Positions 18,569 through 64,000 of a DNA stretch of 64,000 nucleotides are shown here, piece after piece. Under the pieces are notes generated by a model. That model was given only the letters and a program-made list of their open reading frames with translations, had not been told where the DNA came from and made no database searches. Made by a program: the position numbers and the translations under genes. This DNA is from Alphaproteobacteria bacterium. Its GTDB lineage: Bacteria; Pseudomonadota; Alphaproteobacteria; JAAXGF01. The stretch is taken from assembly GCA_963555825.3 (NCBI GenBank), contig CAUVXB020000002.1:3136001-3200000 (forward strand), given 5' to 3'. Each line of letters starts with the position of its first letter. Within the stretch, counting starts at the first letter, position 1.

Positions 18569-21261
<2,693 letters not shown>

Positions 21262-22727: not shown

Positions 22728-24620
22728 ATGAAACCGAGGGACCACGGTCGGACCAAGGTTCTCAACCGGCGCGCTCTGCTGCTGGCCAGCGGCAAGCTCG
22801 GCCTGATGAGTGCGCTGGTCGGGCGGCTCTACTACCTGCAGGTCGTCCAGGCCGACCGCTATGCGACACTGGCCGAGGACAACCGCATCAATCTGCGCCT
22901 GCTGCCGCCGCCGCGCGGGCGCATCCTCGACCGTAACGGTGTGTTGCTGGCGAGCAACCGGCTCACTTATCGCGTCGTGCTGGTCTCCGAGCAGACGCCG
23001 AGCGTCGAGGCAACGCTCGACCGGCTCGGCAAGCTGATCCCGATCAGCGAACAGGAGTACAGAAAAGTTCTGCGCGAAAGCCACCGCAAGCGGGGCTTCG
23101 TACCGATCACCGTACGCGAGAACCTGAGCTGGGCCGAGGTCGCGCGCGTCGAGGTCAACGCCCCGGACCTGCCCGGCGTGATCATCGACGTTGGACAAAG
23201 CCGATACTATGGGCTGGGCGTGACCGCCGCCCACATCACGGGCTACGTCGCGCCGGTGTCGGAGGACGATCTGACCGGGGAACCACTGCTCGAGCTGCCC
23301 GACTTCCGGATCGGCCGGTCGGGCATCGAGAAGACCTATGATTTGGCGCTGCGCGGTTCGGCCGGCAACAGCCAGGTCGAGGTCAACGCCTATGGCCGAG
23401 TGATTCGCGAGCTGGCGCGCCAGGACGGCGAGCCGGGCGACGACGTTTCCCTGACCATCGATATCGGTTTGCAGAGCTATGTCACCGAGCGGGTCGCCGA
23501 ACAAAGCGCCGCCGTCGCCGTGCTCGATATTCACAATGGCGACGTGCTCGCACTCGCCTCGACGCCCAGTTTCGACCCGAACGCCTTCAACGAAGGCATG
23601 ACCCAGGCGGCTTGGCAGGCGCTGTTGCACAACCCGCGCAAGCCGCTCTCCAACAAGGCCATCGCCGGCCAGTACCCGCCCGGTTCGACCTTCAAGATGG
23701 TCGTCGCGCTGGCGGCGCTCGAGAACGGCGTCGTCGGACCCGATCACAAGGTCACCTGTAGCGGCGAGATGGAGCTGGGCGACCGCGTCTTTCACTGTTG
23801 GAAGCGCTATGGCCACGGCGAACGCCGGATGATCGATGCGATCGAGCAGTCCTGCGACCTCTATTTCTACGATATTGCGCGGCGCATCGGCATCGATCGC
23901 ATCGCCGAGATGGCGCGCCGCCTCGGCCTCGGCCAGGCGACCGGTATCGACCTGCCCGGCGAGGCCGACGGGCTGGTGCCCGATCGAGCCTGGAAGCTCG
24001 CCTACATCGGCAGCTCCTGGCAAAAAGGCGAGACGGTGGTCGTCGGTATCGGCCAGGGGTTCCTGCTCGCGACGCCGCTGCAGCTCGCCACCATGGTGGC
24101 GCGGCTCGCCAACGGCGGCGTGGCGGTGACGCCGCGCCTGTTGCGCCGACAGGGCAAGCCGACGGCCGCGGCGGTCGATGTTGCCGCCCCGGTGTTCGAT
24201 TCCATAGGACTGTCGCCGTCCGCGCTCGCCGTCGTTACGCGAGGCATGGACAGGGTGTCGAACAGCCCCTACGGCACGGCGTTCCGCGCGCGCATCGAAG
24301 AGCCGGGCATGGCGCTCGCCGGCAAGACCGGCACCTCGCAGGTGCGCCGCATTTCCAAGGCCGAGCGCAAGTCGGGCGTGCGCAAGAACGTGGAGAAGCC
24401 GTGGACCGAGCGTGACCACGCGCTGTTCGTCGCCTTCGCGCCGGTCGAGGCGCCGCGCTACGCGATCGCCGTGGTCGTCGAGCACGGTAGCTCGGGTGCA
24501 CGCACCGCCGCGCCGATTGCGCGCGACATTCTGCTCGAGACCCAGCGGCGCGATCCGGCGCGCAGTGACGACATCCCCGGGCGGCTCGTCGGGGACGCGC
24601 CGGGCTCAGGCGACGCGTGA
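22728..24620 (+). CDS. mrdA: penicillin-binding protein 2
   Basis: PRGRILDRNG, YPPGSTFK (SxxK), SCD and AGKTGT. Confidence 0.97.
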   Translation: MKPRDHGRTKVLNRRALLLASGKLGLMSALVGRLYYLQVVQADRYATLAEDNRINLRLLPPPRGRILDRNGVLLASNRLTYRVVLVSEQTPSVEATLDRLGKLIPISEQEYRKVLRESHRKRGFVPITVRENLSWAEVARVEVNAPDLPGVIIDVGQSRYYGLGVTAAHITGYVAPVSEDDLTGEPLLELPDFRIGRSGIEKTYDLALRGSAGNSQVEVNAYGRVIRELARQDGEPGDDVSLTIDIGLQSYVTERVAEQSAAVAVLDIHNGDVLALASTPSFDPNAFNEGMTQAAWQALLHNPRKPLSNKAIAGQYPPGSTFKMVVALAALENGVVGPDHKVTCSGEMELGDRVFHCWKRYGHGERRMIDAIEQSCDLYFYDIARRIGIDRIAEMARRLGLGQATGIDLPGEADGLVPDRAWKLAYIGSSWQKGETVVVGIGQGFLLATPLQLATMVARLANGGVAVTPRLLRRQGKPTAAAVDVAAPVFDSIGLSPSALAVVTRGMDRVSNSPYGTAFRARIEEPGMALAGKTGTSQVRRISKAERKSGVRKNVEKPWTERDHALFVAFAPVEAPRYAIAVVVEHGSSGARTAAPIARDILLETQRRDPARSDDIPGRLVGDAPGSGDA

Positions 24621-24633
24621 GGGCGTCGAACCG

Positions 24634-25779
24634 ATGACGAGCAACGAGACCAGCGCGAACGGCATACCCCTCGGCGTCAAACTCCGGCACATCAGTTGGG
24701 GTCTGATCCTGCTGCTGTCGCTGACCGCCTGTTTCGGGTTCGCCATGCTGTATTCGGCGGCCAACGGCAGTTGGGATCCATGGGCGGCGCGCCAGATGCA
24801 ACGCTTCGGCGCCGGCATCGTGTTGATGATCATCATCGCCTTGGTCGATATCCGCATATGGCTGCGCTACGCGTACGCCTTGTACGCGATCGGCCTGGTC
24901 CTGCTCGGTATGGTCGAGGTCATCGGCGCGGTCGGCGGCGGCGCGACGCGCTGGATCGATCTCGGGTTGTTTCGCCTGCAACCGTCCGAGATCATGAAGG
25001 TCGCGCTCGTGCTTGCGCTGGCGCGCTATTTTCACGGCCTTTCCCTCGAGGAGGTGCGCCGACCGCTGTTGATTCTGCCACCGCTCGTGCTGGTGCTGAT
25101 GCCGGCGGCCCTGATGCTGCGCCAACCCGACCTCGGCACGGCGGTCCTGGTTCTGGTCATCGGCGGCGCGCTGTTTCTGCTCGCCGGCGTGCGCCTGTGG
25201 ATGTTCGTCGCGGCGTTCGGCGCCGGCGTCGCGGTGATACCGCTCGGCTGGCAATTCCTGCGCAGCTACCAGCAGGAACGCATCCTGACCTTCCTCAACC
25301 CCGACCGCGACCCGCTCGGCGCCGGCTATCACATCCTGCAGTCGAAGATCGCGCTCGGCTCGGGCGGGCTGGCCGGCAAGGGCTTCCTGGGCGGCACGCA
25401 GAGCCACCTGAGCTTCTTGCCCGAAATGCAGACCGACTTCATCTTCACCATGCTGGCCGAGGAATTCGGCCTGATCGGCGGGCTCGTGCTTCTGGGCCTC
25501 TATCTGCTGATCCTGATCTACGGCTATGCCATCAGCCTGCGCTCGACGAGCCAGTTCGGCCGCCTGGTCGGGCTCGGCATTACGACGACGTTCTTCGTCT
25601 ATGTGTTCATCAATATCGCCATGGTGACCGGCTTGATCCCGGTGGTCGGCGTGCCGCTGCCGCTGGTCTCCTACGGCGGCACGGCGCTGCTGTCACTGAT
25701 GATCGGCTTCGGCCTGCTGGCCGGCGTCTATGTCCACCGCGACGTCCCGCTGCCGAGGCGCGCCGGCGCCGTGGTCTGA
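24634..25779 (+). CDS. rodA: rod shape-determining protein RodA
   Basis: GATRWI, LQPSE, QPDLGT, FLPEMQTDFIF and GVPLPLVSYGG. Confidence 0.97.
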   Translation: MTSNETSANGIPLGVKLRHISWGLILLLSLTACFGFAMLYSAANGSWDPWAARQMQRFGAGIVLMIIIALVDIRIWLRYAYALYAIGLVLLGMVEVIGAVGGGATRWIDLGLFRLQPSEIMKVALVLALARYFHGLSLEEVRRPLLILPPLVLVLMPAALMLRQPDLGTAVLVLVIGGALFLLAGVRLWMFVAAFGAGVAVIPLGWQFLRSYQQERILTFLNPDRDPLGAGYHILQSKIALGSGGLAGKGFLGGTQSHLSFLPEMQTDFIFTMLAEEFGLIGGLVLLGLYLLILIYGYAISLRSTSQFGRLVGLGITTTFFVYVFINIAMVTGLIPVVGVPLPLVSYGGTALLSLMIGFGLLAGVYVHRDVPLPRRAGAVV

Positions 25780-26134
25780 CGTCGCGCGCGATCGGCTCAA
25801 CCGCGCGCGTTGTAGATGGTATGGGGCGTCAGGTCGGGGACCGGCCATGCCTGGTAGTACGCCTCGACGTGGGGGCGCAGCCGTTCGATCAGCGCGGCGT
25901 CCTCCGAGCGGTAGGCTTGAGCGCCGAGCACCTGAGCGGCCTCGCGTCCGACCGCGTCGATGTCGAAGCGCGTCGGCCGGCCGCCGCTGAGCACGACCTC
26001 GCCGCCGACCAGCACCGTGTCGACATCGCCGGCGTCGGCGCGCATCAAGAGCAGCTCGCGCGGATCGATCTCGGGCGCGATCCAGGGCCAGGTCACGCGC
26101 GCCAAGTCGATCAGCACCAGATCGGCGGCGAAAC

Positions 26135-26681
26135 CGGGCGCGATGGCGCCGAGCGTGTCTGCCTTGCGCAGCAAGCTGGCGCCGCCCGCCGTCGCCATGT
26201 GGAGGATCCGTTCCGGCGTCGGCGCCGGCCCGTCGAAGCGCGGCGTGCGGTGCAGGCGCATGGCGAGGCGCATCTCGTCGAAATAGTCCTCGTCGTCGTT
26301 GATCGTCGTGCCGTCCATGCCCAGCGCCACCGTCGCGCCGCGCGCGAGCAGCGCGTTGAGCGGCGCGATGCCGGCGCGCAGCCGCAAGTTCGAGCTCGGG
26401 TTGTGCGAGACCGCCGCGCCGGTCTCGGCGAGCAGATCGATCTCCGGCTCGGTCAACCAGACGCCGTGTGCGATCGAGAAGCGCGGGCTGAGCACGCCCA
26501 GATCGTGCAGGTGATGGAGCGTCGGCTTGCCGTAGTAGCGCGGCCCATGAAGCATCTCGTAGAGCGATTCGGTGACGTGGGTCTGCACACCGACGTCATA
26601 CGCCTCGGCTTGGGCGGCGATACGCTGCATGAAGGCGTCCGAGACCCATTGCGGGCCGGGCGGCGCGAACCAGACGTCGAT
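26135..26681 (+). repeat. 547-bp direct repeat, copy 1 (abuts IS21 left end)
   Basis: Matches 29252-29798; the only difference I found is T26177 versus G29294. Confidence 0.95.
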
Positions 26682-26799
26682 TGAGAACGGCAGAGCAATA
26701 ATCCCCCACTGAAGCGGCCGGTCGATCCGGCTGCGGCGGACCAAAATGGGACCGCGTATAGCCTTCTGTCAGGGTTGCTCTGACTGGAAGGCGGGGGGG

Positions 26800-28299
26800 A
26801 TGTATCGGGTGGAGTTGTACGCACGGGTTCGGCGGGCGTGTCATGTCGAGGGGATGAGCACCCGCGAGGCCTCGCGGGTGTTTGGTGTAGACCGCAAGAC
26901 GGTCCGTAAGATGCTGTCGTTCTCGGTGCCGCCAGGGTATCGCCGAAGCGCGCCGCCGAGGCGGCCAAAGCTGGGTCCGTTCACGGGAATCATCGATCGG
27001 ATCTTGGAAGACGATCGGACCAGCCACCGCAAGCAACGGCACACTGCGAAGCGCATCTTCGACCGCCTCCGGGACGAGTACGGTTTCACGGGCGGCTACA
27101 CCATCGTGAAGGACTACGTTCGTGAGCAGGGGCTTCGGTCGCGTGAGGTGTTCGTGCCACTCTCCCATTCCCCCGGTCACGCCCAGGCGGACTTCGGCGA
27201 AGCGATGGCGGTGATCGGCGGCGCGTTACGGAAGATCCACTTCCTTGCCTTCGACCTTCCCCACAGTGATGGTTGCTTTGTTGCGGCCTATCCGGCGGAG
27301 ACGACCGAAGCATTCTGCGATGGCCACAACGCGGCGTTTGCCTTCTTCGGCGGCGTCCCCCGATCCATCCTGTACGACAACACCAAGCTGGCGGTTGCCC
27401 GGATCCTGGGCGATGGGAAGCGGCAGCGAACGCGCGTCTTCACGGAGCTTCAGTCCCACTATCTGTTCGAGGACAGGTTCGGCCGGCCGGGCAAGGGCAA
27501 CGACAAGGGCAAGGTCGAGGGACTGGTCGGCTTCATCCGGCGGAACTTCCTGGTCCCCGTCCCGCGTGCCGAGAGCTTCGCGGCCCTCAACGATGCTCTC
27601 GCCGAACAGTGCCGCCGGCGCCAGGCGGCGCGGCTGCGGGGCCACAAGGAGACCATCGGCGAGCGTCTCGAGCGGGATCGTCAAGTTCTCTTGCCATTGC
27701 CGCCTGCTCCCTATGATGCCTGCGATAAGCGCCCTGGACGGGCGAGTTCGCTGTCGCTGGTGCGTTACCGCAGCAACGACTATTCCGTGCCCGTGGCCTA
27801 CGGCCACCGTGAGGTGCTCATCCGGGGCTACGTCGATGAGGTGGTGATCAGCTGCGGGGCCGAGGTGATCGCCCGGCACCGCCGGTCCTACGACAGCGAG
27901 GACCTGATCTTCGACCCGCTGCATTACCTGCCCTTGATCGAGCAGAAGATCGGCGCCCTCGACCAGGCCGCGCCATTGGCGGGCTGGGACCTGCCCGAGG
28001 CCTTCATCACTCTGCGGCGGCTCCTCGAAGCTCGTATGGGCAAGGCAGGCAAGCGCGAGTACGTCCAGGTGCTCCGTCTACTGGAGACCTTCCGGCTCGA
28101 GGAGGTCGAGGGTGCGGTCGGCGACGCCCTGCGGCTCGGCGCAATCGGCTTTGATGCGGTGAAGCACCTGGTACTGTGCCGCATCGAGCGGCGGCCGCCC
28201 AGGCTCAACCTCGACGTCTATCCGTATCTGCCGCGCGCCCGGGTCGCGATGACGTCCGCCAAGTCGTACATGAGCCTGCTGTCGGGGCTCGGCGCATGA
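26800..28299 (+). CDS. istA: IS21 transposase IstA
   Basis: N-terminal HTH, QADFGE, ILYDN, KGKVE (DDE) and NDYSVP. Confidence 0.96.
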   Translation: MYRVELYARVRRACHVEGMSTREASRVFGVDRKTVRKMLSFSVPPGYRRSAPPRRPKLGPFTGIIDRILEDDRTSHRKQRHTAKRIFDRLRDEYGFTGGYTIVKDYVREQGLRSREVFVPLSHSPGHAQADFGEAMAVIGGALRKIHFLAFDLPHSDGCFVAAYPAETTEAFCDGHNAAFAFFGGVPRSILYDNTKLAVARILGDGKRQRTRVFTELQSHYLFEDRFGRPGKGNDKGKVEGLVGFIRRNFLVPVPRAESFAALNDALAEQCRRRQAARLRGHKETIGERLERDRQVLLPLPPAPYDACDKRPGRASSLSLVRYRSNDYSVPVAYGHREVLIRGYVDEVVISCGAEVIARHRRSYDSEDLIFDPLHYLPLIEQKIGALDQAAPLAGWDLPEAFITLRRLLEARMGKAGKREYVQVLRLLETFRLEEVEGAVGDALRLGAIGFDAVKHLVLCRIERRPPRLNLDVYPYLPRARVAMTSAKSYMSLLSGLGA

Positions 28300-29060
28300 C
28301 CGACACACCGCAAGTGCTGCTCGCCCACCACCTCAAGACGCTGAAGCTGCCGACCTTCCTGCGCGAGTACGACAAGATCGCCCGGCAGTGCGCCTCGGAA
28401 GGCGTCGATCACGTCCGCTACCTGTTGAGACTCGCCGAGCTCGAGCTGATCGACCGCGAGCGCCGCATGGTCGAGCGGCGCATCAAGGCGGCGCGCTTCC
28501 CCGTGGTCAAGAGCCTCGACAGCTTCGACTTCAAGGTCATCCCCTCGCTCAACAAGGCGCTGGTCCTGGAGCTGGCCCGCTGCGAGTACATCGAGCGCCG
28601 CGAGAACCTCATCGCGCTCGGCAACAGTGGGACCGGCAAGACCCACATCGCCCTCGGTCTCGGCCTGGCGGCCTGCCAGAAGGGCCTCTCGGTCGGCTTC
28701 ATCACCGCCGCCGCGCTGGTCCACGAACTCATCGAGGCCCGCGATGACAAGCAGCTGCTGAGGTTCCAGAAGAAGCTCGCCACCTACAAGCTTCTGATCG
28801 TCGACGAACTCGGCTTCGTGCCGCTGTCGAAGACCGGCGCCGAGCTGTTGTTCGAGGTGTTCAGCCAACGCTACGAGCGGGGCTCGACCCTGGTCACCAC
28901 CAATCTGCCCTTCGACGAATGGACCGAGGTGTTCGGCTCCGAGCGCCTCACCGGCGCGCTCCTCGATCGCCTCACCCACCACGTCAACATCCTCGAGATG
29001 AACGGTGACAGCTACAGGCTCAACCAGAGCCGCAGGCGTCAAACCCCGACTGCTAACTGA
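28296..29060 (+). CDS. istB: IS21 helper AAA+ ATPase IstB
   Basis: GNSGTGKT, LLIVDELG, TTNLPF.EW and LLDRLTHH; ATGA overlap with istA. Confidence 0.97.
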   Translation: MTDTPQVLLAHHLKTLKLPTFLREYDKIARQCASEGVDHVRYLLRLAELELIDRERRMVERRIKAARFPVVKSLDSFDFKVIPSLNKALVLELARCEYIERRENLIALGNSGTGKTHIALGLGLAACQKGLSVGFITAAALVHELIEARDDKQLLRFQKKLATYKLLIVDELGFVPLSKTGAELLFEVFSQRYERGSTLVTTNLPFDEWTEVFGSERLTGALLDRLTHHVNILEMNGDSYRLNQSRRRQTPTAN

Positions 29061-29251
29061 ACCGACCACCCAGCCCACGCTTGACCCCGTGGGCCCACAG
29101 GTCCCTCCCGCGCGCGCCGCCGCGTCAGCCTGTTGAGGGCACGCCGCGTCGCGCGCGGGGCCCTCCCGTGGACTACGGGGACAAGCCCGCAGCCGCCAAG
29201 CGGTCCCTTCTTACACCGCCGAGGTGGTCCCTTTTTGCTCCGCCATTGACA

Positions 29252-29798
29252 CGGGCGCGATGGCGCCGAGCGTGTCTGCCTTGCGCAGCAAGCGGGCGCC
29301 GCCCGCCGTCGCCATGTGGAGGATCCGTTCCGGCGTCGGCGCCGGCCCGTCGAAGCGCGGCGTGCGGTGCAGGCGCATGGCGAGGCGCATCTCGTCGAAA
29401 TAGTCCTCGTCGTCGTTGATCGTCGTGCCGTCCATGCCCAGCGCCACCGTCGCGCCGCGCGCGAGCAGCGCGTTGAGCGGCGCGATGCCGGCGCGCAGCC
29501 GCAAGTTCGAGCTCGGGTTGTGCGAGACCGCCGCGCCGGTCTCGGCGAGCAGATCGATCTCCGGCTCGGTCAACCAGACGCCGTGTGCGATCGAGAAGCG
29601 CGGGCTGAGCACGCCCAGATCGTGCAGGTGATGGAGCGTCGGCTTGCCGTAGTAGCGCGGCCCATGAAGCATCTCGTAGAGCGATTCGGTGACGTGGGTC
29701 TGCACACCGACGTCATACGCCTCGGCTTGGGCGGCGATACGCTGCATGAAGGCGTCCGAGACCCATTGCGGGCCGGGCGGCGCGAACCAGACGTCGAT
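29252..29798 (+). repeat. 547-bp direct repeat, copy 2 (abuts IS21 right end)
   Basis: Matches 26135-26681. Confidence 0.95.
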
Positions 29799-30590
29799 GC
29801 GGTCATGCGCGTGGTAGGCTTGCCACAGGTCGTCGATGACGCCGAAATAGTCGTCCTCGTCGATGTACTCGGCCGGCGGGATGCGGCGCGCGGCGAAGCC
29901 CCGGACGTCGTCGGGCAGGCTGGCGAGGAATGTCTCGTCCTCGCCGGCGCCCGAGACCAGGAAACACTGTGTCGTAAAGCCGGCCGCGAAGGCGACCCGG
30001 ATGCCGGCGGTGTCGTAAGCCTGGAGTGCTTGGCGCGCGTTCGCGGCGTAGGATTCAACGGTGCCGTGGTCGCTGTGGAAGTCGACCACGCTGGTGACCC
30101 CGGTGCAGAGCAGCCGCGCGGCGCTCAACAGGGTGTCGAGCCGCGGCTCGAGTCCGCGCTTCAGGCTGAGCGACAACAGCCAGGACTCGAGCAGCCGGTC
30201 CTGGACGCCCTGCTGGATCGCCGAGACGCCGTTCGAGTGATGGTGTGCGTTGATCATGCCGGGCATGATCGCGACGCGTTCCGAGCCGACGACCGTCGCG
30301 TCGGGGTGGTTGGCGCGCAGCGTCGCCCAATCGCCGAGCTCGGCGATCGTGCCGCCTTCGACGCGTACCGCCGCGTCGGTCAGCACCGCGTCGGCCTCGC
30401 CACCGCCCGTGACGATCCAGCGTCCACGCACCAGTTTCGTGTCGCCCATCGGTCGTCCCTCCCTGTGCCTGCCGTTGGTGAACGATAGGGGGCTGGCGTC
30501 GTGTCTGGCAATCCCCCGATTGGCCCGCCGAACGGGGCGCGCTATGGTGACGGCGCCACACGCGGCGTTCCTCGAAATGGCGGAGGCGGC

Positions 30591-36486: not shown

Positions 36487-36689
36487 GGGCAGCAACTATA
36501 TAGCGCCCGACGACGCGGAATGCACGCCTCGGCGACGCCATTAGCCGGAATTTTTCACCATCGACGATTCCGCCGTAATGACCCATCAGCCTGCGACCGC
36601 AGGCCGCCGACCGTTCGGCGGAAGCAAGCGCGGCGACTGAGCGCAGGTCGTCTTTGCAAAGCAAAGATGACCGTACAAAAACGCGCCAA

Positions 36690-42285: not shown

Positions 42286-42315
42286 CGTCGCGCGGCGCGG
42301 CCTGTCGCCCGCCAT

Positions 42316-42578
42316 ATACCAAGGACCAGTGATAAAGACCCATAGAGACGGCTTGCCGTGGTTCTCGGCTAGGCGCGCCCGCCGCGGCGATGCAGCGCAT
42401 CGCAAGGTGGGGGCAACGACGTCCGAGAGCCTCGGCAAGCCGCCCTTCGGGTCGCGTCCGCTTATCGCCGGAGGGCGTCAGGAAGCCTAGCCGATGCGCT
42501 GCATCGCCCGCGGCTCCCTTCCTACCCGGCGAAAAGCGGACACGATCTCTATGGGCCTTTATCACTGGTCCTTGGTAT
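42316..42578. mobile_element. MITE (263 bp) with 33-bp terminal inverted repeats and internal hairpins
   Basis: ATACCAAGGACCAGTGATAAAGACCCATAGAGA (42316-48) versus the reverse complement of 42546-78 (one mismatch). Non-coding, between convergent genes. Confidence 0.85.
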
Positions 42579-42582
42579 CATC

Positions 42583-43962
42583 TCAGACTTGGAAACCGGC
42601 CGGGCGCGGCGCGCCTCGCGCCAGCTCGGCGACGACGGCGAGTCCCCGGGCCAGCGCGTCGTCGTCCTCGGCGGCGCCGAGGCACAACCGGACCGCGGCG
42701 GGGCCGGCGCCCGGCCGTACCGCGAAGTCCTCGGCCGGCGTGACGACGACGCCGTGGGCGGCTGCCGCGGCCGCGAAGTCTCGCCCGGTCCACGGCGCCG
42801 CCAACGACAGCCACAGATGCGGGTTGTCGGCATCGTGCTCCAGGCGCAGCCCGTCAAGCCGATCGCGCGCCAGCGCGTGCAGGCGGTGCGATGCGAGGCG
42901 CCGCCGGTCGGCGATCTCGTCGGCCGTGCCGTCGTCGATCCAGCGGCAGGCGAGCTCGACGACCAACGGCGATACCATCCACGAGATCGTTTGGCTGGTG
43001 GCGACGAGGTCGGCGACCAGCGCGGCCGGGGCGATCATGAAGCCGACCCGCAGGCCCGGCGCCACGGTCTTCGACAGGCTGGTGATGTGGATCGTCTGGT
43101 CGGGCAGCACGGCGCCGAACGGCTCGAAGTTCGACGTCGCGCCGCGCGCGTAGACATCGCCCTCGATAATCAGCACGCGCCGCCGCGCGGCGACCTCGGC
43201 GATGCGGCGCCGGCGCTCGGCCGCCAAGGTGCGTGTCGTCGGGTTATGCGCATGCGGCATGCAGAACAGCAGCCGCGAGCCAGAGGCTTCGCACGCCGCC
43301 TCGAAGGCGTCCGGGTCGAGGCCCTCGTCGTCGATCTCGACGGGCAGCAGCGTGAAGCCGAACAGCCGCGCGAAATTCTTGAGCCCGGGATAGGTCAGCG
43401 ACTCGACCATCACCGCGTCGCCCGGCCGTGTCAGCGTGCCGATCGCCACCGAGAGCGCCTGCTGCGCGCCGGTGGTGACGATGATGCGCTCGGCGTCGGC
43501 GGCGACGCCGCGCCGGCCGGCCCATCGCGCGAAGACCTCGCGGTGATGCGCGCGGCCCTGGGCCGGGCCGTAGTCGAGCAGGCTGTGCGCGTCGGCCTCG
43601 CGTTGGATGTCGGCGAGCACCCGGCGCAACGCGCCGGCGAGCTCGACCGGGGGCGGCCGGTTGAAGCTGAGGTCGACCTCGGAGTCGCCGGCCGCTACCG
43701 CCGTGGGCACGGCAAACGAGCGCGGCGCTTCGGCGACAAAGCTGCCGCGCCCGACATGCATGACGACCGAACCGCGCCGCTCGGCCAGGCGATAGCCACG
43801 GTTGACCGTACCCACGGTGATACCCAGCGTCTGGGCGAGGTCGCGCATCGTCGGCAGCCGCGCGCCGGGCGCCAGACGGTCGGCGCGTCGGTCGGCGTCG
43901 ATGGCGTCGGCGATTTGGCGGTAGACCGGCCCCGCGCCGTTCGCGATGGTGGGATGCCACAT
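42583..43962 (-). CDS. MocR/GabR-type PLP-dependent GntR regulator
   Basis: wHTH (RLPTMRDLA..LG...GTV.RGY, GRGSFV) plus an aminotransferase-like domain (SLSKTVAPGLRVG). Confidence 0.93.
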   Translation of the reverse strand: MWHPTIANGAGPVYRQIADAIDADRRADRLAPGARLPTMRDLAQTLGITVGTVNRGYRLAERRGSVVMHVGRGSFVAEAPRSFAVPTAVAAGDSEVDLSFNRPPPVELAGALRRVLADIQREADAHSLLDYGPAQGRAHHREVFARWAGRRGVAADAERIIVTTGAQQALSVAIGTLTRPGDAVMVESLTYPGLKNFARLFGFTLLPVEIDDEGLDPDAFEAACEASGSRLLFCMPHAHNPTTRTLAAERRRRIAEVAARRRVLIIEGDVYARGATSNFEPFGAVLPDQTIHITSLSKTVAPGLRVGFMIAPAALVADLVATSQTISWMVSPLVVELACRWIDDGTADEIADRRRLASHRLHALARDRLDGLRLEHDADNPHLWLSLAAPWTGRDFAAAAAAHGVVVTPAEDFAVRPGAGPAAVRLCLGAAEDDDALARGLAVVAELARGAPRPAGFQV

Positions 43963-61776: not shown

Positions 61777-61911
61777 TATTTTAGGTTCCTGTATCGTATT
61801 CGGTGTCGGTTTTCAGTCGCCCGGTTGTCCGGACTTCGGGCGCCATGCACTTTCAGTTTTGACCTGCCGGAAGCATGGCGCGGACGCCGGCGTGCCTTCG
61901 CCGATAACTTA

Positions 61912-63085
61912 TACCGCATCCGGCTGATCAGTTCGGATAGATGGTTTTGGGCCACCAGTGGAAGTCGATACGCCCCTTGAAGAGTTCGGGATTGGCATCG
62001 AGAGTGAGGCAGCGCCGGGCGACGACGGCGTCGAGTTCCTCGATGGTCTCGAAGTGTCTGTTTGCGACCGGCTCGTCGAGTACGGGCCAGAGACATTCGG
62101 CCGGTTGCAGCTGGGGCGTATAGGGCGGCAAGTAGACGAGGTGGAGGCCTTCCGGCACCGTGAGGTTCGGCGCCGTGTGCCACCCGGCGCCGTCGATCAC
62201 CAGGATGATGATGCGGCTCTGCCCAGCGCCGGCCTCGCGGGCGAAGAGGGCGAGCAGCTTCTCGAAGAATGGCTTGGAGACACAATTGGAGATGTACCAA
62301 AAGGTCTCTCCGCTGGTCGGCGAGACGAGGGCGGTGACGTAGAGCCATTTGAAGCGGTGGTGGCCGAGCGCCACCGGGCGCATCCCGCGCGGCGCCCAGC
62401 AGCGCCGGGCCAATGGCTTCAGACCGAGCCGGTGTTCGTCGCTGGCGAAGACTTCGATCGGCGTGCCGGGGTGGCGCTCGGCTTCTTCCGCGACCAGGCG
62501 GTGAAGTTTTTTTTAAACGCCTGGCGTTCTTCCTCGCTCGCCGCCCCGGGGTTGTTCGGCCTGGGCACCTGCAAACTCCACTCGACTGCCTTCAGCGCCT
62601 CCCAGCCCCGTTGCGGCGCCACCGTCTCCAAGCCCAGTTCGCCCGCCATCCAAGCCGCCACCTTCGGCCCAGACCACAAGCCGCCGTCCGCCGGCGGCTT
62701 TTTCAGGCGCTCTTTCAACACCGCCAGGACTTCCGGCTTCAGGATCGTCGCCTCGGAGCCGTTCGAGCGTCGACGATCGCCCAGCGACGACGGGCCGAGC
62801 TTGTTGTAGCGAGAAAGCAATTGTTCGAGCCAGCGTTGGCCGAAACTCGTCATCTCCGACACTTCGCGAACCGTATGGCCTTTGGCCAAAAGCCAGATCA
62901 CCTGGAAGTGCCGCGCCTCCGTCGCCTCCGACGCCGAGCGATACCGTCCCTCCAACTCAGAAAGCTGCAAATGTTCCTCGACATGCGCCATGTCCCGCCC
63001 CTCCGCGAATCATGACTACGGATCCTAACCCTTTCCGATTCCAACGGGAATCCGTCGCAACCGAATCATTCAGGCGGAGTCGGTA
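61912..63085 (-). mobile_element. IS630-family insertion sequence
   Basis: Imperfect IRs TACCGCATCCGGCTGA / TCAGGCGGAGTCGGTA, flanked on both sides by TTA (61909-11 and 63086-88). Confidence 0.88.
61928..62991 (-). CDS. IS630 transposase, two ORFs joined by a probable programmed -1 frameshift
   Basis: wHTH ORF 62991-62419. Slippery TTTAAAAAAAAC at 62517-62506; the -1 frame reads KLHRLV...SDEHRLG...IDGAGWH...LPPYTPQLQPAE. Confidence 0.88.
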
Positions 63086-63468
63086 TTACTCGGGCAGGCC
63101 GGCCTGGCGCAGGCCGTCGATGTAGTGGTCGCGGTCGGCCGGGCTCCTGAACGGCAGGACGGCGTCGATGAATGACACCGAGACATTCGGGTTGAGGTCG
63201 TGGACGCGCGCGAGCACCGCGCGGGCCTCGTCGACGCGCCCGAGATGGGCCAGCGCCGCGGCTTCGTGGGCGTGCAGCCAAAACACGTGGCCCACGCTCG
63301 GCTGGTGTTGGCTCCGGCGCGCCCATTCCACCGCCTCCTCGTGGCGCCGCAGCAGGGTCAACGCGAGGCTCCGCATCGTCATCATGGCGAAGGCCATCGG
63401 GTCGCGCGGGCTGAGACGGAGCGCCTCGTCATATGCGCCGAGCGCTTCCTCGGCGCGGCCGATCAAGG
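63086..63468 (-). pseudogene. C-terminal TPR fragment of a cyclase/TolB-TPR-like protein, cut by the IS3 element
   Basis: ALRLSPRDP...YIDGLRQAGLPE resembles the C-terminus of 15851-17635; the frame ends at the IS3 terminus. Confidence 0.75.
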
Positions 63469-64000
63469 TGAGGTGGTCCCACTTTGTTGGACAGTTTGGC
63501 AGCGCGGTTAAGGTGTATTCCGTTGTTTGATCATGCTGCCAAAATCCTTTTTATCACATCCTGTTGCTGTTGTTGAGCCTGTGGGGATGTGGGCAAGGCG
63601 CGAGCCTTGTCCATCATATCCACAGGTTGACCGGCCCCGTAGGCCTCGGCCGGCGTTTGACCGTCGAGGGACGAATGGGGCCGCTCGGTGTTGTAGAAGC
63701 CGATCCACTCGCCGATGACCCGTTCGGCGTGGAAGCCGTCGGTGAGCTCGTGTAGGTAGACCGCCTCATACTTGAGAGACCGCCACAGGCGCTCGATGAA
63801 GATGTTGTCCATGCAGCGGCCCCGACCGTCCATGGAGATGCGGATGCTCGCGTTCTTGAGCACGCCGGTGAAGTCGAGGCTGGTGAACTGGCTGCCCTGA
63901 TCCGTATTGAATATCTCCGGCTGGCCGTAGCGGGCCAGCGCGTCGCCCAAGGCCTCGGCGCAGAATCCAGCGTCCATGGTGTTCGACAGCCGCCAGGATA
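63469..64000 (-). mobile_element. IS3-family insertion sequence (partial; transposase 3' end 63531..>64000)
   Basis: FNTDQGSQFTS, SMDGRGRCMDNIFIERLWRSLKYE and YNTERPHSSL; terminus TGAGGTGGTCCCACTTTGTTGGACA. Confidence 0.92.

Follow-up and report, generated by a model that had tools for sequence, protein, structure and literature searches.

We found a single IS21-family insertion sequence (IS) lying between two direct copies of a 547-bp segment of an amidohydrolase gene. The window, that is, the whole stretch of DNA that was analyzed, comprised 64,000 nucleotides, and the coordinates below refer to it. With a probability of roughly 0.85, the structure is a real, one-off duplication made by the transposase. 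The two copies were identical at 546 of the 547 positions, a match that cannot be due to chance. The sole mismatch, T at 26177 in the left copy and G at 29294 in the right copy, corresponds to Ser and Arg, respectively, in the minus-strand gene. Identity ended abruptly at both borders of the copies, and the IS, which runs for 2570 bp from the TG at 26682 to the CA at 29251, adjoins both of them directly; one repeat plus the IS makes a unit of 3117 bp. The order of the locus is flank A, B, IS, B, and flank C, where B denotes the 547-bp segment, and its repeated parts are as follows:

26135-26681, no strand: left 547-bp copy (segment B), adjoining the unique flank A, with T at 26177 (Ser), the derived state judging from orthologues and metagenome contigs
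29252-29798, no strand: right 547-bp copy, adjoining the unique flank C, with the ancestral G at 29294 (Arg)
26135-26140 and again 29252-29257, no strand: hexamer CGGGCG, which a canonical left-site insertion would have duplicated as its 6-bp target
26676-26681 and again 29793-29798, no strand: hexamer GTCGAT, which a canonical right-site insertion would have duplicated as its 6-bp target

A search of the whole 6.04-Mb genome found B at these two sites only. The DNA outside 26135 and 29798 was single-copy, with no IS at the outer borders of the duplication, and the nearest other repeats within the window were at 20224-21221 and 36586-36680. The initial annotation had placed the repeats, the IS termini, the T26177/G29294 (Ser/Arg) mismatch, and the 3117-bp unit correctly, and its assignment of the element to the IS21 family and of the target gene to the amidohydrolases was upheld by Pfam and NCBIfam matches above the curated cut-offs.

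The element between the repeats is made up of the following parts:

26682-29251, plus strand: IS21-family insertion sequence, 2570 bp with TG...CA termini; the genome has 33 further full-length copies that are 100% identical to it
26682-26701, plus strand: left terminal inverted repeat, identical to the reverse-complemented right end at 15 of its first 20 positions
26746-28299, plus strand: istA, encoding a transposase of 517 aa (Pfam rve and Mu-transpos_C_2; NCBIfam transpos_IS21, 284.8 bits against a cut-off of 160)
28296-29060, plus strand: istB, encoding a helper AAA+ ATPase of 254 aa (IS21_help_AAA, 277.8 bits against a cut-off of 200; IstB_IS21, 238.6 bits)
29232-29251, plus strand: right terminal inverted repeat, ending in CA

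It thus combines an IstA DDE transposase, an IstB AAA+ helper directly downstream, inverted repeats with TG and CA termini, and short target duplications, all of them features of the IS21 family. The ATG of istB at 28296 overlaps the stop codon of istA. As judged by eye, the right end has two nearby occurrences of GGTCCCTT and the left end has a similar GGGACC, which may be candidates for the internal binding-site repeats of the family (L1/L2 and R1/R2). IstA was 67-69% identical to the nearest plasmid-borne IS21-family transposases, which were from Sulfitobacter and Paracoccus, and the best DNA match to the IS among 40 related genomes had 74% identity, most matches being fragments.

The genome is heavily IS-laden and carries 54 full-length copies of the element on two replicons, 34 of which are 100% identical over 2570 bp. 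Target duplications in the IS21 family range from 4 to 8 bp, and the initial annotation had taken short duplications as the norm; this held here, with exact flanking repeats of 6 bp in 12 of the 54 copies and of 8 bp in one. Another 40 copies had repeats of 3 bp or less, counted as none, and the focal copy had 547 bp. The element is therefore an ordinary IS21-family IS that normally duplicates 6 bp of its target. Among 15 interrupted copies, no flanking repeat longer than 6 bp was found (12 nt tested). A genome-wide scan for local direct repeats of at least 40 bp returned 552, including 119 two-copy repeats, and the focal locus was the only one in which the gap consisted wholly of multi-copy DNA. 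One suggestion of the initial annotation was that the element habitually makes very long target duplications, as do IS1634 and IS1549, for which direct repeats of 8-514 bp are reported (PMC2266710). That precedent and the focal copy alone speak for it, but the 53 other full-length copies with at most 8 bp, the 15 interrupted copies without a long repeat, and the lack of a second case in the genome-wide scan refute it as regular behavior and make it extremely unlikely. The long repeat is the single exception among 54 copies, a one-off rearrangement and not a routine new transposition chemistry of this element. A single aberrant insertion with widely spaced joints could still have occurred, even though regular long duplications fail.

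The assembly comprises two contigs with no N and resolves the 34 identical 2.57-kb copies of the IS. Further evidence came from the contigs of 4 of the 23 listed sequencing runs (X1, X2, X15, and X16), one per study; such contigs cannot phase across 547 bp and drop variants and short junction pieces, and X15 or X16 may be the source data of the assembly, in which case it is not independent of it. The repeat had a word depth 1.6-1.9 times that of the unique flank in the contigs of both X15 (136.5 and 155.4 in repeat contigs vs 81.5-90.3 in flank contigs) and X16 (119.1 vs 60.9-68.5). An X16 contig holding 325 letters of the repeat and 212 letters beyond it had a depth of 102.9, and the depth calculated for a twofold repeat plus onefold sequence beyond was 100.9. 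In both runs, the flank contig reaches 30 letters into the repeat and stops at 26164, the behavior that a branching 31-mer graph predicts, and the repeat contig begins exactly at 26135.

These depths bear on whether the locus is an assembly artefact in which reads of a left-site strain and a right-site strain were merged through the IS, as the initial annotation had proposed in the form of a two-strain chimera. The samples are mixed, with sponge metagenomes among the run labels, and X2 shows allelic variation. In addition, the single mismatch could represent a strain difference, and T at 26177 appeared in the contigs of none of the four runs, so the sole difference between the copies rests on the assembly; bubble removal could explain this. 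However, mixtures of single-copy alleles would give a repeat depth equal to the flank depth, and the observed excess therefore disfavors a chimera, as does the agreement of the X16 contig with twofold plus onefold depth. The resolution of 54 full-length copies of 2.57 kb in two contigs suggests that the reads were longer than the IS, and the joint predicted for a left-site allele (26140 to 26682) was listed in none of the four runs, a weak observation because contigs drop variants. We regard an artefact as very unlikely. The joints of the IS right end with B and of B with the IS left end were not seen directly in the contigs of the four runs, and no back-joint of 29251 to 26135 was listed among them, which says little as contigs drop junction pieces.

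Two further contig observations concern the borders of the repeat. One X16 contig runs past 26681 into non-IS sequence despite the expected branch into the IS. In X15 and X16, an odd contig connects 25988 with 26179 via 30 foreign letters, and no second locus of the genome accounts for this join.

The insertion splits the amidohydrolase gene into two parts, each with an open reading frame (ORF) that reaches into the IS:

29252-30449, minus strand: N-terminal part of the amidohydrolase; the ORF (29211-30449) extends 13 codons into the IS
25797-26681, minus strand: C-terminal part of the amidohydrolase; the ORF (25797-26744) starts within the IS

An intact allele was present in X1 and X2, the contigs of which pass 26135 unbroken at flank depth; the X2 contig continues 212 letters beyond 26681 into sequence unlike the IS. 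Two metagenome contigs (94-96% identical) contain one B and an uninterrupted gene, and two orthologues were likewise uninterrupted. The ancestral allele A-B-C without the IS thus persists in related samples. The locus varies in nature, some samples having the intact allele and others the duplicated one, which could make it useful as a marker and for testing recombinational reversion.

The initial annotation had described the locus as a reversible knockout. This is structurally sound, and no reversion was observed, though contigs do not separate a restored allele from an ancestral one. In-silico removal of 3117 bp produced an open frame of 1536 nt (511 aa), which aligned without gaps to the orthologue on one of the two metagenome contigs (472 of 511 positions identical). 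Because loss of one repeat and the IS would restore the 511-codon gene in this way and recA is intact in the genome, reversion appears feasible. RecA-dependent exchange between the repeats of the split gene would release a 3117-bp circle consisting of the IS plus one repeat and restore the frame, mostly with the derived Ser codon since the mismatch is located 43 bp in from the left border of the repeat. Most revertants would hence carry T at 26177, where the intact alleles of X1 and X2 carry G.

IS21 integration is regarded as tightly concerted. Because both new joints of the focal locus coincide with the exact IS termini, we infer that they were made by the transposase through IstA strand transfer, and that the target positions hit were about 541 bp from each other where 6 bp would be usual. 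At somewhat less than even odds, we tentatively prefer a single episode of insertion in which end joining was uncoupled to a history of two insertions and subsequent recombination within the IS. In a single insertion into the intact gene, the two IS ends would have been joined separately, either by two single-end integrations into opposite strands of one duplex or by joining to two sister duplexes behind a replication fork, and repair synthesis or replication would then have copied the intervening 547 bp. The outcome would mirror, as a duplication, the 0.5-4.5 kb deletions that accompany insertion of the IS21-family element ISPve1. As reported for IstA, single-end integration occurs in vitro besides concerted integration, and the two IS21 insertion sites lie 5 bp apart within one cryo-EM complex (PMC11208146). 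Because of this 5-bp spacing, a wide stagger would need an off-pathway reaction.

The main rival is that two canonical insertions in the same orientation, to the left and right of B, occurred on two chromosome copies and that RecA exchange inside the 2570-bp IS then joined A-B-IS to IS-B-C. The two chromosomes could have been sisters, copies in a polyploid cell, or those of two lineages after DNA transfer; in a variant, a circle of B and the IS would have been excised from a doubly inserted allele and integrated by homology into an intact allele. Each joint fits a normal 6-bp insertion site, and the 34 copies that are 100% identical, together with an intact recA, provide an ideal substrate for recombination. 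Exchange between IS copies also appears rife: 40 of the 54 full-length copies lack a target duplication, and 6-bp halves match across copies and replicons (left flank at C2:2348562 with right flank at C1:1267971; left flank at C1:11404 with right flank at C2:1523286). Cross-copy matches of flank hexamers numbered 14, with about 1.6 expected by chance, some of them belonging to single interrupted copies. Conversely, this history needs two same-orientation insertions no more than 547 bp apart, on different chromosome copies in one cell, plus an exchange; with both insertions on one chromosome, it predicts two or three IS copies or a deletion instead of the single IS observed. Neither single-insertion allele was seen (the left joint in none of the four runs), whereas the intact allele was found in two of the four runs and two metagenome contigs, with the proviso that contigs cannot prove absence. 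We consider two insertions with exchange somewhat unlikely, and the sister-chromosome or two-insertion origin offered in the initial annotation stays viable. The final sequence is alike for uncoupled joining in one episode and for two canonical insertions plus exchange.

Two other origins were rejected. If the 547-bp tandem duplication had already been in place, landing of the IS precisely on its join would require an exact coincidence and an insertion without target duplication. Mobilization of the IS together with B through a cryptic end is at odds with the sequence at 26135, which is unlike the inverted repeat.

A broader reading of uncoupled end joining is that the IS21-family transpososome of this element can uncouple both strand transfers in vivo and join its ends hundreds of bp apart, and that this is a major, unrecognized mode of the family. 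We find this rather unlikely. If it were true, polarity would decide between a long target duplication, as at the focal locus, and an adjacent deletion, as in ISPve1 and possibly in some of the 40 copies without target duplication, and two-site insertion would be a driver of gene loss in an IS-laden symbiont genome. With the aim of detecting insertion with a small intragenic deletion, five of these 40 copies and one control were picked for flanks that looked coding on the same strand on both sides by third-position GC. Among the resulting 12 flank fragments, the two members of a pair never shared a Pfam family, and several fragments lacked any match.

As a natural case, the locus is a clean one, with an IS21-family element sitting where the two units of a short tandem duplication within a gene meet. 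To our knowledge, the large two-site events reported in the IS21 family are deletions only, as in ISPve1. Uncoupled end joining, if it did take place, would be relevant to how rigorously integration is kept concerted by the IstB-IstA complex, and to the shares of transposase and homologous recombination in gene loss in IS-expanded, host-associated genomes.

Compared with known systems, the focal element resembles IS21 and IS5376 in its istA with an overlapping istB, imperfect TG...CA inverted repeats, and short target duplications without an obvious target consensus (the direct repeats of IS5376 being 5 bp according to PMC10122671 and PMC11208146), and differs from them in the one copy with a 547-bp flanking duplication. 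ISPve1 of Paracoccus versutus is likewise an alphaproteobacterial IS21-family element with ends joined to targets hundreds to thousands of bp apart. In the report on ISPve1, insertion with an adjacent deletion of 0.5-4.5 kb was found in 16% of clones vs simple insertions, which give 8-bp direct repeats, in 7%; the deletion was always beside the 5' end of the IS, and deletions only, with no duplications, were reported (PMC3281130). ISPve1 thus removes the intervening DNA, whereas the focal locus duplicates it. IS1634 and IS1549 share with the focal locus a single IS between direct repeats of up to about 0.5 kb but belong to another transposase family and form long repeats recurrently, whereas the focal IS is IS21-type, with one long repeat in 54 full-length and none in 15 interrupted copies. 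IS-bounded tandem duplications arising by unequal sister-chromosome exchange, such as that of the arn operon with IS1, also carry the IS at their outer borders (IS-B-IS-B-IS); the outer borders here are unique sequence, and the duplicated segment is only 547 bp and lies within one gene. Among the matches listed in the literature searched, none described a long target duplication made by an IS21-family element, and those listed for long or large target site duplications included no bacterial insertion sequence. In eukaryotes, too, a DDE-type integrase or transposase now and then generates duplications hundreds of bp long that have the element at their join, as in sister-chromatid transposition of maize Ac and, reportedly, in HERV-K HML-2 (PMC5488345). 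Both resemble the focal locus in this respect and differ from it in being eukaryotic elements.

We found that, as the initial annotation had observed, an insertion sequence (IS) within an amidohydrolase gene abuts two copies of the same 547-bp segment. The coordinates of repeats and element, the single mismatch (T26177 versus G29294), and its coding effect (Ser on the left, Arg on the right) all proved correct on re-examination. Repeat identity stops sharply at either border, and a whole-genome search placed the segment at two places only, both at this locus.

26135–26681: left copy of the 547-bp direct repeat
26682–29251: 2570-bp element separating the repeats, from TG to CA
26746–28299: istA; NCBIfam transpos_IS21, 284.8 bits (cut-off 160), with rve and Mu-transposase C-terminal domains
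28296–29060: istB; IS21_help_AAA, 277.8 bits (cut-off 200)
29252–29798: right copy of the 547-bp direct repeat

The genes istA and istB overlap at the stop codon of the former and the start codon of the latter, and the element terminates in imperfect inverted repeats that match at 15 of their first 20 positions. The element shows the transposase, helper, and terminal-repeat features that define the IS21 family, and on the IstA and IstB matches, the gene overlap, and the terminal repeats we class it, from sequence, as an IS21-family insertion sequence. IstA shares 67–69% identity with plasmid-borne IS21-family transposases of Rhodobacterales, and with a top DNA match of 74% among 40 related genomes, the element is counted as a family member not described before.

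The interrupted gene (minus strand) is of the TRZ/ATZ-like deaminase/chlorohydrolase kind, with no NCBIfam model at or above cut-off, and lies between a PBP2–RodA pair on one side and isochorismatase-family and aromatic amino-acid lyase genes on the other. It is split into a frame of 412 codons (399 N-terminal residues followed by 13 codons of IS sequence) and one of 315 codons that starts within the IS. The genome comprises two contigs, C1 and C2 (6.04 Mb, 65% G+C, no N), with the window at C2:3136001–3200000, and the labelling of the sequencing runs as sponge metagenomes, together with nearest orthologues from marine MAGs, points to a marine, sponge-associated bacterium.

We placed Logan contigs of four public runs from four studies on positions 24500–29251, which hold one segment copy only. 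In runs X1 and X2, contigs run unbroken across 26135, with 180 and 65 flank-side letters, respectively, at a depth equal to the flank and with G at 26177; the X2 contig extends 212 letters beyond 26681 into sequence unlike the IS. Two metagenome contigs (14.9 and 1.8 kb; 94–96% identical to the window) carry an uninterrupted gene with one segment copy and G at the mismatch site, and two more distant orthologues (77% and 87–90% amino-acid identity) are uninterrupted with Arg there. Since all of these are intact with G or Arg, the ancestral allele is, judging from these sequences, the intact gene with G; the left-copy T (Ser) is derived, or an error, and samples of the lineage differ in whether they carry the insertion-duplication allele.

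X15 and X16, the other two runs, show a flank contig that stops at 26164, 30 letters inside the repeat, and a repeat contig that begins exactly at 26135. Such ends are the signature of a branch in the 31-mer graph, meaning that in both samples 26135 is preceded by a further sequence besides the flank. Word depths, which derive from contigs and are not copy numbers, were 81.5–90.3 for flank contigs and 136.5 and 155.4 for repeat contigs in X15, and 60.9–68.5 and 119.1, respectively, in X16. One X16 contig, made up of 325 letters of repeat and 212 beyond it, had a depth of 102.9, and 100.9 was computed for the repeat counted twice and the remainder once. The possibility, raised in the initial annotation, of an assembly chimera of two strains is disfavored by this excess, because two mixed single-insertion strains would give a repeat depth equal to the flank depth. 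X15 or X16 is possibly the assembly's own source data. Neither IS joint was seen directly in the contigs of the four runs, one X16 contig runs past 26681, an expected branch point, into non-IS sequence, and T at 26177 was absent from the contigs of all four runs, which bubble removal could explain. Since 54 copies of this 2.57-kb repeat are resolved within the two-contig assembly, the assembly reads would be longer than the IS, which lends the structure indirect support. We consider it about 85% probable that the structure is genuine, a one-off duplication made by the transposase around an otherwise ordinary IS21-family element. Separately, a contig in X15 and X16 (depths 10.2 and 45.9) joins 25988 to 26179 via 30 foreign letters, in place of the 190 bp containing the repeat border and the mismatch, and no other genomic locus accounts for it.

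The genome is IS-crowded, and this element by itself accounts for 54 full-length copies (≥93.6% identity), 34 of them 100% identical to the focal copy, besides many truncated or interrupted ones. Target duplications were exactly 6 bp in 12 full-length copies, 8 bp in 1, and ≤3 bp, which is chance level, in 40; the focal copy alone has a long one. Outer duplications of 15 interrupted copies, tested up to 12 nt, were 6 bp in 3, 5 bp in 1, and ≤2 bp in 11. A scan for direct repeats (≥40 bp, within 30 kb) returned 552, of which 119 were two-copy and non-overlapping; 4 of these enclose a gap of ≥70% multi-copy DNA, and only the focal pair encloses solely an IS. Hand inspection of 32 of the 259 repeats of ≥100 bp had the same outcome. 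The idea that this element habitually makes very long target duplications is therefore rejected, with ≤8 bp at the 53 other full-length copies and no second case genome-wide, and the flanking-repeat census proposed in the initial annotation marks the long repeat, in this genome, as a one-off rearrangement. A wide stagger by the canonical transpososome is likewise ruled out, as its two insertion sites lie 5 bp apart within one complex (PMC11208146). Two other two-copy repeats (243 bp, C1:929695–929937 and 933064–933306; 149 bp, C1:542482–542630 and 545803–545951) enclose gaps of approximately 3.1 kb composed of unique DNA and a central multi-copy element, and could represent IS-associated duplications of greater age or complexity.

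Each of the two new joints falls exactly at an IS terminus, which random breakage would not yield; we thus infer that IstA made both, at target positions approximately 541 bp apart given the usual 6-bp stagger at each. One episode and two both fit the final sequence. Our tentative preference is for one insertion episode into the intact gene, for which a single aberrant event would suffice, given an intact target of the kind shown to exist. IstA performs single-end integration in vitro (PMC11208146), and the alphaproteobacterial IS21-family element ISPve1 produced insertions with a 0.5–4.5 kb deletion beside its 5′ end in 16% of clones and simple insertions in 7% (PMC3281130); two-site joining therefore has IS21-family precedent. 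The implied rate would be 1–2% (1 in 54–69 copies). The two-insertion origin suggested in the initial annotation, with subsequent exchange between IS copies, is a viable but less probable route. Such exchange is plainly common here (no target duplication flanks 40 of the 54 copies, and 6-bp halves that match occur on different copies and replicons), and recA is intact, but both single-insertion alleles would have to meet on different chromosome copies within one cell; two insertions on one chromosome give products with a deletion or with additional copies of the IS. We saw neither single-insertion allele, a weak argument against this route.

The proposal of a reversible knockout holds in silico, but reversion as an event was not observed. 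Deleting the IS and one repeat gives a 1536-nt open frame (511 aa) that aligns gap-free with the orthologue on the 14.9-kb metagenome contig (472/511 residues identical). RecA exchange across the repeat should restore the gene and free a 3117-bp circle, and the derived Ser codon would be expected in most revertants because the mismatch is 43 bp from the repeat's left end. The G-bearing intact alleles of X1 and X2 are more simply ancestral than revertant.

Other copies showed further rearrangements. Seven share a 1521–1523-bp insert at IS positions 965–967, within istA (C1:506241..502148, C1:1523671..1519576, C2:520713..516620, C2:579736..583837, C2:2149854..2145762, C2:2298162..2294069, and C2:2840768..2836675), one of which has an outer target duplication of 6 bp. 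Despite its broken transposase gene, the resulting IS-in-IS composite (approximately 4.1 kb) has spread as a whole, presumably mobilized in trans. An insert of approximately 1.17 kb at IS positions 2530–2536, inside the right inverted-repeat region, occurs in at least two copies (C2:3458827..3462574 and C1:736815..740561), and 41-bp fragments of the right end, found on their own elsewhere, hint at further cases. Matching hexamer halves across replicons (left flank C2:2348562 with right flank C1:1267971; left flank C1:11404 with right flank C2:1523286), together with the copies lacking a target duplication, point either to IS-mediated exchange between the two replicons or to deletions linked to insertion. 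IS-contig word depth relative to unique flank was approximately 160–215 in X15 and X16 and 16–18 in X2, and the assembly's own count is approximately 80–91 copies; the X2 strain seems much poorer in this IS, and the X15/X16 excess might come from other carriers, free circles, or depth bias. Window segments 42286–42585, 61907–63095, and 63457–64000 (40, 13, and 31 further genome copies, respectively) are probably other insertion sequences or fragments.

Our literature search, with scant coverage of subscription journals, turned up no published case of an IS21-family element with a long target duplication. In IS1634 and IS1549, direct repeats of 8–514 bp recur among copies (PMC2266710), unlike the long repeat of the focal element, which does not recur. 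The locus also differs from classical IS-bounded duplication via unequal sister exchange (PMC11253626) in that its outer borders are unique sequence. The closest precedent is the insertion-linked deletion of ISPve1, of which the focal locus would be the duplicative counterpart.
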